Positions 30,359-32,569 of a stretch of DNA of 64,000 nucleotides are shown piece after piece. A program made the position numbers and the translations under genes. The stretch lies in NCBI RefSeq assembly GCF_017348835.2, contig NZ_CP071375.1, one strand, 5' to 3'. Within the stretch, counting starts at the first letter, position 1. Every line of letters starts with the position of its first letter. The notes below the pieces were generated by a model that saw only the letters and a program-made list of their open reading frames with translations, did no database searches and had not been told where the DNA came from. This DNA is from Escherichia coli (lineage in GTDB: Bacteria; Pseudomonadota; Gammaproteobacteria; Enterobacterales; Enterobacteriaceae).

Positions 30359-31609
30359 ATGAATAAACAATCCTGGCTGCTTAACCTCAGCCTGTTGAAA
30401 ACGCACCCGGCGTTTCGCGCAGTATTCCTCGCTCGTTTCATCTCTATTGTTTCTCTGGGTTTGCTCGGCGTCGCGGTGCCGGTGCAGATCCAGATGATGA
30501 CGCATTCTACCTGGCAGGTGGGGCTTTCGGTGACGCTGACCGGCGGCGCGATGTTTGTTGGCCTGATGGTCGGCGGTGTGCTGGCGGATCGCTATGAGCG
30601 CAAAAAAGTGATTTTGCTGGCGCGCGGCACCTGTGGCATTGGCTTCATTGGACTGTGCCTGAATGCGCTGTTGCCGGAGCCGTCATTGCTGGCAATCTAT
30701 TTACTTGGTTTATGGGATGGTTTTTTCGCATCGCTTGGCGTTACGGCGCTACTGGCGGCGACACCAGCACTGGTAGGGCGTGAAAACTTAATGCAGGCCG
30801 GGGCGATCACCATGTTGACCGTGCGTCTGGGGTCGGTGATTTCGCCCATGATTGGCGGTTTACTGCTGGCGACTGGCGGCGTGGCCTGGAACTACGGGCT
30901 GGCGGCGGCGGGCACGTTTATTACCTTGCTACCGTTGTTAAGCCTTCCGGCACTGCCACCGCCACCGCAGCCGCGTGAGCATCCGTTGAAATCATTACTG
31001 GCAGGATTTCGTTTTCTGCTCGCCAGCCCGCTGGTAGGAGGGATTGCGCTGCTGGGTGGTTTATTGACGATGGCGAGCGCGGTGCGGGTACTGTATCCGG
31101 CGCTGGCTGACAACTGGCAGATGTCAGCGGCACAGATTGGTTTTCTCTACGCGGCGATCCCGCTCGGCGCGGCTATTGGTGCGTTAACCAGCGGGAAGCT
31201 GGCACATAGTGCACGACCAGGGTTATTGATGCTGCTCTCCACGCTGGGATCGTTCCTCGCCATTGGTCTGTTTGGCCTGATGCCGATGTGGATTTTAGGC
31301 GTGGTTTGTCTGGCGCTGTTCGGCTGGCTGAGCGCGGTCAGCTCGTTGCTGCAATACACAATGCTGCAAACGCAAACCCCGGAAGCGATGTTAGGGCGGA
31401 TTAACGGTTTGTGGACGGCACAAAACGTGACGGGCGATGCCATAGGCGCGGCGCTGCTGGGCGGTTTGGGAGCGATGATGACACCGGTTGCTTCCGCAAG
31501 CGCGAGCGGTTTTGGTTTGTTGATTATCGGCGTGTTGTTATTGCTGGTGCTGGTGGAGTTACGGCGTTTTCGCCAGACGCCGCCGCAGGTGACAGCGTCC
31601 GACAGTTAA
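30359..31609 (+). CDS. entS: EntS, MFS enterobactin exporter
   Basis: 416-aa 12-TM ORF; recognised by recall. Confidence 0.92.
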
Positions 31610-31612
31610 TGC

Positions 31613-32569
31613 TTAAAACAGCGCCTTAAGCCTATCCAGCACTTGCATGGCGCTGTAGTAATCCAGACGGAATGTCTCGGTTCCCAGCGCATAAACCTGC
31701 TTGTTTTGTACTGCAGGTAGATGCGCGAGCAGCGGATTAGCATAAATAGCATCGGCGTCTTTCTGATCACCGGCGAACAGGAATAGCGATTCACCGTTTA
31801 ACCCAGCAGCCAGATTTTCCCCACCAAGCTGAATGATGTCATGGCGTTTACCCTGGCTTTGGCTGGCATTTAACCCTGCGGGTAACTTCGCCAGCGTAAA
31901 GCCGAGTTGTTCCAGCATCTGCCCTTGTGCTGATTCCGGCGTCCAGAGATTGGCACTGTGTGCAGCGGCAGTATAGACAATGGCAGTGACCGGCTGCGGC
32001 GGTAATTTGATTTGCTCTTTCGCCGCCGCCAGTTGCTTATCAAACTGCGCAATCCGCTCTGCCGCTTGTTTCTCATGCCCGGTAATTTCGCCAAGTTGCG
32101 TTAACAGCGCCTGCCAGCTTTTGTCGTCGTAATTGATGATTAATGTCGGGGCGATGGTGGAAAGCTGATCATACAGCGCCAGCGCCGAATCCCCGCCGGT
32201 TGCGCTAATTAAAATCAGATCCGGCATTTGCGCGGCAACGGCTTCGGCGCTCGGTTCGCCGATATAGAGCCGTTGCAGTTTGCGTTCTTTCGCCACCTTG
32301 CTCCACTGGCGTAAAAAGCCCTGGTCATCCGCGACGCGGTTATTTGGCGTGGTCGCGCCGCTGGCGATCACCGGAGCATCAATCGCCAGCAGTGATCCGG
32401 TCAGGGTGACGCTGGTGGAAACAATACGCTGCGGCTGGCTTTCCAGGGTATGAGTGCCACGGCTGTCAGTAATCTGACGCGGCCAGTCGGCGGCCTGAAC
32501 TGCGGCTATTCCTGAAAGCAAAAGTCCTGTTAATAGAAGGGCATTGCGGTAGAGCGGGGCGAGTCTCAC
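31613..32569 (-). CDS. fepB: FepB, periplasmic ferric enterobactin binding protein
   Basis: 318-aa ORF with signal peptide; recognised by recall. Confidence 0.92.

Follow-up and report, generated by a model that had tools for sequence, protein, structure and literature searches.

Where the mRNAs of two convergent genes end when 3 nt separate their stop codons is the question raised by entS and fepB in the stretch of Escherichia coli chromosome analyzed here (64,000 nt in length, referred to as the window). The enterobactin exporter gene entS occupies positions 30359 to 31609 on the plus strand (416 amino acids; stop codon TAA at 31607 to 31609), and fepB, which encodes the ferric-enterobactin periplasmic binding protein, occupies positions 31613 to 32569 on the minus strand (318 amino acids). 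Direct reading of positions 31601 to 31620 gave GAC AGT TAA tgc TTA AAA CAG, in which the TTA at 31613 to 31615 is the reverse complement of the fepB stop codon TAA and the spacer is TGC (31610 to 31612). An 801-nt piece across the junction had matches in 5,416 of 5,426 complete E. coli genomes, with PE164 as the best match (100%). The RefSeq annotation of PE164 also places entS and fepB 3 nt apart, as does that of K-12 MG1655 (entS, 622300 to 623550; fepB, 623554 to 624510), where the junction sequence is identical to that of the window. The 3-nt separation of the stop codons described in the initial annotation was borne out by the sequence, the list of open reading frames (ORFs), and both RefSeq annotations.

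The junction is real, yet it is ordinary and already catalogued. The PE164 RefSeq annotation was transferred to the window, with coordinates adjusted for the extra IS421 copy in PE164, and five of the nine convergent junctions in the 64-kb window were no more than 3 nt apart. These junctions were fepE/fepC (overlap of 4 nt), entS/fepB (gap of 3 nt), ybdD/hcxA (overlap of 4 nt), ybdL/ybdM (gap of 0 nt), and ybdR/yldA (gap of 3 nt). The IS421 copy of PE164 is absent from the window and shifts the coordinates upstream of window position 17407. Tight convergent junctions were the local norm, and the entS-fepB spacing was not statistically remarkable. The 3-nt junction has long been present in the K-12 annotation and such junctions are common, so the observation as originally posed matters little.

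Because the spacer is only 3 nt long, an mRNA extending even a few bases past its own stop codon overlaps the opposing ORF, and the earlier claim that the transcripts must terminate inside the opposing gene follows from this geometry. The accompanying claim, that there is no intergenic terminator, held only in part: 3 nt leave no room for one, but a strong stem-loop on the fepB strand lies 8 nt past the fepB stop codon, inside entS. When both strands were scanned with a terminator consensus, no site joining a hairpin to a T-run fell within 300 nt of the junction, and the combination of a GC-rich stem and an immediate U-run that defines intrinsic (Rho-independent) terminators was absent from both sides of the junction. 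Canonical terminators located deeper in entS or fepB were also rejected; the scan returned three sites in 2.6 kb, compared with 4.0 ± 2.3 expected, and none of them was credible. An inverted repeat in the 3' coding end of fepB (ACAGCGCC...GGCGCTGT, positions 31619 to 31657) was considered as a fepB terminator stem and rejected, with folding no better than that of shuffled sequences (z, -0.4 to -0.7). Among 81 Enterobacteriaceae sequences, 73.6% of cells in this repeat were paired, compared with 72.5% in shuffles; because pairing did not exceed the shuffle expectation, there was no covariation, and the pairing was explained by column composition. An AU-rich hairpin across the fepB stop codon (GCTTAA/TTAAGC) was weak and not significant and was likewise rejected. 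No known RNA family was found at the junction (Rfam), and the hits above the gathering threshold fell elsewhere in the window.

The stem-loop beyond the fepB stop codon was the structure that stood out at the junction. Minimum free energy (MFE) folding predicted a 14-bp stem-loop in fepB-sense RNA (positions 31571 to 31604, minus strand), which lies within entS codons 405 to 416 and is a candidate 3'-end protecting or termination hairpin of the fepB mRNA. Its MFE on the minus strand was -23.4 kcal/mol (z, -4.68), and none of 200 shuffled sequences was as stable. Only 0.2% of 47-nt windows across the 64 kb folded as well, and the stem-loop fell at the 1.8th percentile of the best hairpins of random 70-nt pieces. 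Similar stabilities were obtained for the hairpins of two bona fide terminators, those of ahpF and uspG (-25.5 and -23.2 kcal/mol, respectively). The same bases on the plus strand (entS sense) folded at shuffle level (-10.8 kcal/mol; z, -0.04) because four of the stem pairs are G.U in minus-strand RNA and become C.A mismatches in plus-strand RNA. The sequence directly after the stem-loop (AAAACGCC; tail, AAAACGCCGT) contained no T-run or U-run. A stem that starts 8 nt after a stop codon would fall inside the footprint of a terminating ribosome.

The stem-loop was retained in E. albertii, E. whittamii, Escherichia sp. MOD1, and a divergent E. coli lineage, with every difference keeping the pairing, despite amino acid changes in the EntS tail. 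In E. albertii, the stem was fully Watson-Crick and folded on both strands. The homologous hairpin of Citrobacter amalonaticus (gap of 0 nt) differed at six stem positions, all of them pair-preserving transitions. Among the relatives compared, no double compensatory change was found in the stem, where all changes were Watson-Crick/wobble transitions.

The RNA that would be made by read-through of fepB, antisense to the 3' end of entS, was C rich and G poor from position 31572 down to position 31375 (minus strand) and represents a candidate Rho utilization region. In this region, 78-nt windows had C/G ratios of 1.6 to 2.4, corresponding to the 95th to 100th percentiles of the 64-kb window. The most C-rich and G-poor RNA of the 64-kb window lay directly after the fepB stem-loop, with a peak ratio of 2.42 between positions 31572 and 31495 (top percentile), and the ratio remained at or above 1.6 down to position 31375. 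Rut-like RNA was thus present immediately past the stem-loop, but this composition was not specific to the junction because the antisense strand of entS is C rich along most of its length. The read-through RNA of entS differed in both respects. Its first 400 nt past the stop codon were compositionally neutral, and the first moderately C-rich patch (positions 32010 to 32127, plus strand; C/G, 1.5 to 1.7; 89th to 95th percentiles) was located 400 to 500 nt past the entS stop codon. No significant entS-sense hairpin was found, the best one after the entS stop codon having an energy of -15.7 kcal/mol (23rd percentile). On the entS side, there was no signal equivalent to the stem-loop and C-rich tract of fepB.

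The junction was compared across Enterobacteriaceae by scanning for FepB with one genome per species, which gave 80 loci, 73 of which had entS convergent to fepB and within 200 nt of it and were analyzed. The entS-fepB gap at these 73 loci ranged from -11 to 165 nt (median, 49 nt). The gap was 3 nt in all four Escherichia species found (E. coli, E. albertii, E. whittamii, and Escherichia sp. MOD1), in which the length of the spacer was fixed and its bases varied (TGC, TAC, TAA, and TCA). Gaps of no more than 3 nt were found at ten further loci, in about eight further lineages. In the first 70 nt past the fepB stop codon, the most stable hairpin had a median energy of approximately -24 to -25 kcal/mol whether the gap was tight or larger, compared with a control mean of -15.7 kcal/mol. 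What varied was the location of the hairpin. Among the 59 spacers that exceeded 3 nt, 43 contained REP-like units (GCCGGATAAGGCG...CGCATCCGGC) or CCCTCTCCC-N3-GGGAGAGGG palindromes (35 of the 59 spacers, all from other genera, when only REP-like motifs were counted), and most of the others contained different GC-rich palindromes; few of the spacers had a T-run. The REP palindromic-unit consensus was not found in an extragenic position at the E. coli entS-fepB junction, where just 3 nt are intergenic.

Hairpins embedded in the final 17 entS codons were far more stable in the fepB sense at loci with gaps of no more than 3 nt (median, -23.8 kcal/mol; n = 14) than at loci with larger gaps (median, -11.5 kcal/mol; n = 59; Mann-Whitney test, P = 6e-6), and a bias of the embedded hairpin toward the fepB strand was found only at the tight-gap loci (paired Wilcoxon test, P = 0.0015); the 14 tight-gap loci represent only about 9 to 10 independent lineages, so both P values overstate independence. 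At three of the loci (L047, L058, and L080), the embedded hairpin was simply a palindrome of the former spacer, through which a lengthened entS ORF had extended. The same origin was rejected for the tight gap of Escherichia, where the tail after the residues ELRRFRQ is 10 amino acids long, compared with 8 in Salmonella. A stable hairpin right after the fepB stop codon thus seems, from these sequence comparisons, to be required across Enterobacteriaceae and to be supplied either by REP-type palindromes in the spacer or by the coding tail of entS.

A stable stem-loop that lacks a U-tract and is followed by C-rich RNA has precedent as the 3' end of Rho-dependent transcripts. Dar and Sorek (NAR 2018, PMC6061677) described Rho-dependent 3' ends at stable stem-loops without U-tracts, followed by an enrichment of C over G, which can fall inside a downstream coding sequence. 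The fepB candidate resembles these ends in having a stem-loop (-23.4 kcal/mol) just past the stop codon, no U-run, and C-over-G enrichment next to it, all inside the coding sequence of the next gene. It differs in that it was read from sequence and in that its hairpin is located in a convergent gene and is made strand specific by G.U pairs. We therefore favor an ordinary compact convergent junction at which fepB ends in a Rho-type manner with a stem-loop in the entS tail and which contains no dedicated antisense device, a reading that in our judgment has about an even chance of being correct.

According to this favored reading, Fur-repressed, divergent promoters would drive both entS and fepB, which would be switched on together when iron is low, and their mRNA 3' ends must overlap, with only 3 nt between the stop codons. 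After RNA polymerase passed the fepB stop codon, the untranslated, C-rich and G-poor RNA antisense to the entS 3' end would recruit Rho, which would terminate the fepB RNA within roughly 50 to 250 nt. Exonucleases would then trim the RNA back to the stem-loop at 31571 to 31604, leaving a stable 3' end approximately 40 to 45 nt into entS; both the Rho dependence and this 3' end are what we infer from the features described above. The final 12 entS codons, which specify a poorly conserved cytoplasmic tail, also encode this stem-loop, and its G.U pairs allow it to form only in fepB-sense RNA. With an end of this kind, the steady-state overlap of fepB mRNA with entS may be only approximately 40 nt. 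Read-through from entS would probably extend several hundred nucleotides antisense to fepB, until it was stopped by Rho or by head-on polymerase collision.

Whether such overlap has a regulatory function was considered in light of transcript data and of the promoters of the two genes. The overlap interpretation of entS-fepB is not new, the pair having already appeared in a published list of convergent genes whose transcripts overlap. ExcludonFinder (Sanmartin et al., NAR 2025, PMC12288877) placed it among 165 convergent excludons of MG1655, present in at least 50% of 58 RNA-seq samples, and the authors singled it out as a functionally related pair; ybdL-ybdM, ybdR-yldA, and ybdD-hcxA, also from the window, are listed as well. 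In accordance with that class, entS and fepB are opposite-strand neighbors with overlapping transcripts, as judged from the 3-nt gap and the published RNA-seq. A regulatory excludon at this locus would involve cleavage of the double-stranded RNA by RNase III and head-on polymerase interference, such that entS depresses fepB and vice versa and the balance between export and import is tuned. On RNase III processing of a sense/antisense duplex, the p19 dsRNA data set gives values for ybdA and fepB at the level of whole genes only. Overlap is unavoidable with a 3-nt gap, and several hundred nucleotides of antisense fepB RNA are plausible given that entS read-through meets no nearby stop signal. 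However, for inclusion in the catalogue, coverage beyond the coding sequence must exceed 50% of the gene mean, which almost any 3' untranslated region would achieve because the gap is only 3 nt. The fepB side moreover appears built to end quickly, and the range of gaps across Enterobacteriaceae argues that tight overlap is not a conserved requirement. Reciprocal repression, which defines the class, is made unlikely at entS-fepB by shared Fur control. Matches to the Fur box were found in the fepD-entS divergent promoter region (positions 30261 to 30285; 3 to 5 mismatches to the 19-nt Fur consensus) and in the fepB-entC divergent promoter region (positions 32595 to 32613 and 32710 to 32728; 4 to 5 mismatches). 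A Fur footprint and gel shift have been reported for fepD-entS, and footprinted fepB and entC Fur sites have been listed (PMC2189734). With Fur boxes at both promoters, entS and fepB would be induced together, unlike genes with mutually exclusive expression. EntS and FepB are required simultaneously, a situation opposite to mutual exclusion. We consider a regulatory excludon distinctly unlikely, and a large regulatory effect of the overlap is unlikely given the shared Fur control. A related proposal is that the last 12 codons of entS have been selected for dual use, encoding both the EntS tail and a G.U stem-loop that forms only on the fepB strand and sets the fepB 3' end, while entS read-through, hundreds of nucleotides antisense, damps the fepB mRNA and sets the ratio of export to import in iron starvation; this stronger version appears very improbable. 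The Term-seq and BCM tables of Adams et al. (2021), obtained from iron-replete cultures, list no 3' end or Rho-dependent region at K-12 positions 6232xx to 6237xx, and this negative result is weak evidence either way because the cultures were iron replete.

The fepB stem-loop could also be placed among the bidirectional terminators of convergent gene pairs (SEnd-seq; RNA polymerase collision model, bioRxiv 10.1101/2022.10.23.513370), with which entS-fepB shares convergent, coexpressed genes, a hairpin at the boundary, and the lack of a canonical U-tract. In the corresponding collision model (Ju et al. 2019; Wang et al.), a stem-loop pauses polymerase, and head-on and trailing collisions release both transcripts independently of Rho; the model requires the genes to be convergent, with a stem-loop where they overlap, and termination to proceed without Rho or a canonical U-tract. 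The coinduction of entS and fepB and the strong hairpin at their junction are consistent with this mechanism. In contrast to the single palindrome that folds in both transcripts in the SEnd-seq class, the E. coli hairpin is found in fepB-sense RNA only (minus strand, -23.4 kcal/mol and z of -4.68; plus strand, -10.8 kcal/mol and z of -0.04), and, as the transcripts have no intergenic zone in which to overlap, collisions would occur within coding sequence. A polymerase paused at the hairpin would also block entS polymerases approximately 40 nt before the entS stop codon and thereby truncate entS messages, and the rut-like tract downstream suggests Rho instead. Collision-driven termination is quite improbable here. 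A more neutral account is that the junction reflects compaction only, the spacer having been deleted neutrally in an ancestor of Escherichia, with the hairpin a by-product of a GC-rich, unconstrained tail or the relic of a palindrome and with diffuse transcript ends. Tight or overlapping convergent stop codons are common (five of nine junctions in the window), the spacers of relatives contain mostly REP-type palindromes, which are mobile and are gained and lost, the stem shows no covariation by double changes, and in 13 of the 5,426 E. coli genomes, GPEC1366 being one, an 80-nt hairpin insertion at the junction is tolerated although it alters both stop codons, all of which fit this account. 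Against it stand the rarity of such a hairpin by chance, its strand specificity in the direction relevant to fepB, its retention across Escherichia despite amino acid changes in the tail, and the strong enrichment of embedded hairpins exactly where the spacer is missing. Compaction only is an unlikely explanation, though one with a real share of the probability.

The favored reading, Rho-type ending of fepB at a stem-loop in the entS tail, would also accommodate the REP elements of other genera. REPs located between convergent genes, as in 207 of 704 such pairs in E. coli, have been proposed to terminate transcription in both directions and to block decay (bioRxiv 10.64898/2026.03.23.713779). 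REP-like palindromes fill the entS-fepB spacer in most other Enterobacteriaceae, whereas Escherichia, lacking both the REP and the spacer, has a non-REP hairpin inside entS at the equivalent position relative to the fepB stop codon. In most other members of the family, REP-type palindromes in a spacer of 30 to 130 nt would provide the hairpin after fepB, and in Escherichia, where the spacer is missing, the hairpin would lie inside entS.

The value added by this analysis is modest and comparative and lies in the hairpin that follows the fepB stop codon across Enterobacteriaceae. If confirmed, the arrangement in Escherichia would provide a clean case in which the requirements of a convergent neighbor's 3' end constrain a coding sequence. 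It would also call for caution in engineering the C terminus of entS, where tags or deletions could alter the stability of fepB mRNA.

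The entS/fepB allele of the window was judged a rare variant, since an 801-nt piece spanning the junction (window 31200-32000) was matched at ≥99% identity in only 2 of 5416 genomes, with most genomes falling between 95% and 99%. Single nucleotide polymorphisms in this allele were located at 31561-31566, immediately beyond the fepB-sense stem-loop. An 80-nt insertion precisely at the entS/fepB junction was also observed, in 13 of 5426 E. coli genomes (positions 708-787 of L003, the E. coli GPEC1366 sequence; the equivalent window positions are 31607-31615). In the genomes with this insertion, the entS-fepB spacer was 74 nt long and contained the hairpin CCCCTCTCCCCGGAGGGGAGAGGGG, the entS stop codon was changed to TAG, and FepB was extended by three residues (KKD). 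The hairpin was similar to palindromes that fill the entS-fepB spacer in Enterobacter and related genera.

Besides entS/fepB, four further convergent junctions with gaps of ≤3 nt were found in the window: fepE/fepC (27443-27446), ybdD/hcxA (40247-40250), ybdL/ybdM (42616-42617), and ybdR/yldA (51196-51200). The fepE stem-loop (-26.0 kcal/mol; 0.2nd percentile relative to the best hairpins in random 70-nt pieces) started 6 nt past the fepE stop codon, within the 3' end of fepC, and shared with fepB the pattern of a hairpin embedded in the opposing gene.

The Rfam matches scoring above the gathering score were the sok antitoxin RNA adjoining hokE (17097-17252, plus strand), the ES036 sRNA in the entD-fepA interval (18197-18238, minus strand), the STnc70 sRNA (46577-46670, plus strand), and the rnk leader (51883-51991, minus strand). 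The closest genome, PE164, carried a frameshifted copy of the IS421 transposase in the hokE-entD interval (4872-6207 of its sequence, L001; equivalent to window position ~17418), and this copy was missing from the window. On this basis the window was assigned to a close relative rather than to PE164.

The fepB leader of K-12 contained a 183-nt GC-rich dispersed palindromic repeat, sited between the fepB start and the fepB Fur box (K-12 624541-624723, or 4542-4724 of the K-12 sequence L002). The leader in the window (equivalent site, ~32598) was without this repeat. The element had a median of 6 locations per E. coli genome. A strong "orphan" 3' end reported from Term-seq by Adams et al. (2021) at K-12 624680 (minus strand), 170 nt upstream of fepB, falls within the repeat. 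Among the 5426 complete E. coli genomes, 2726 carried the repeat at the fepB-leader site. The fepB 5' untranslated region is therefore very different in approximately half of E. coli strains.
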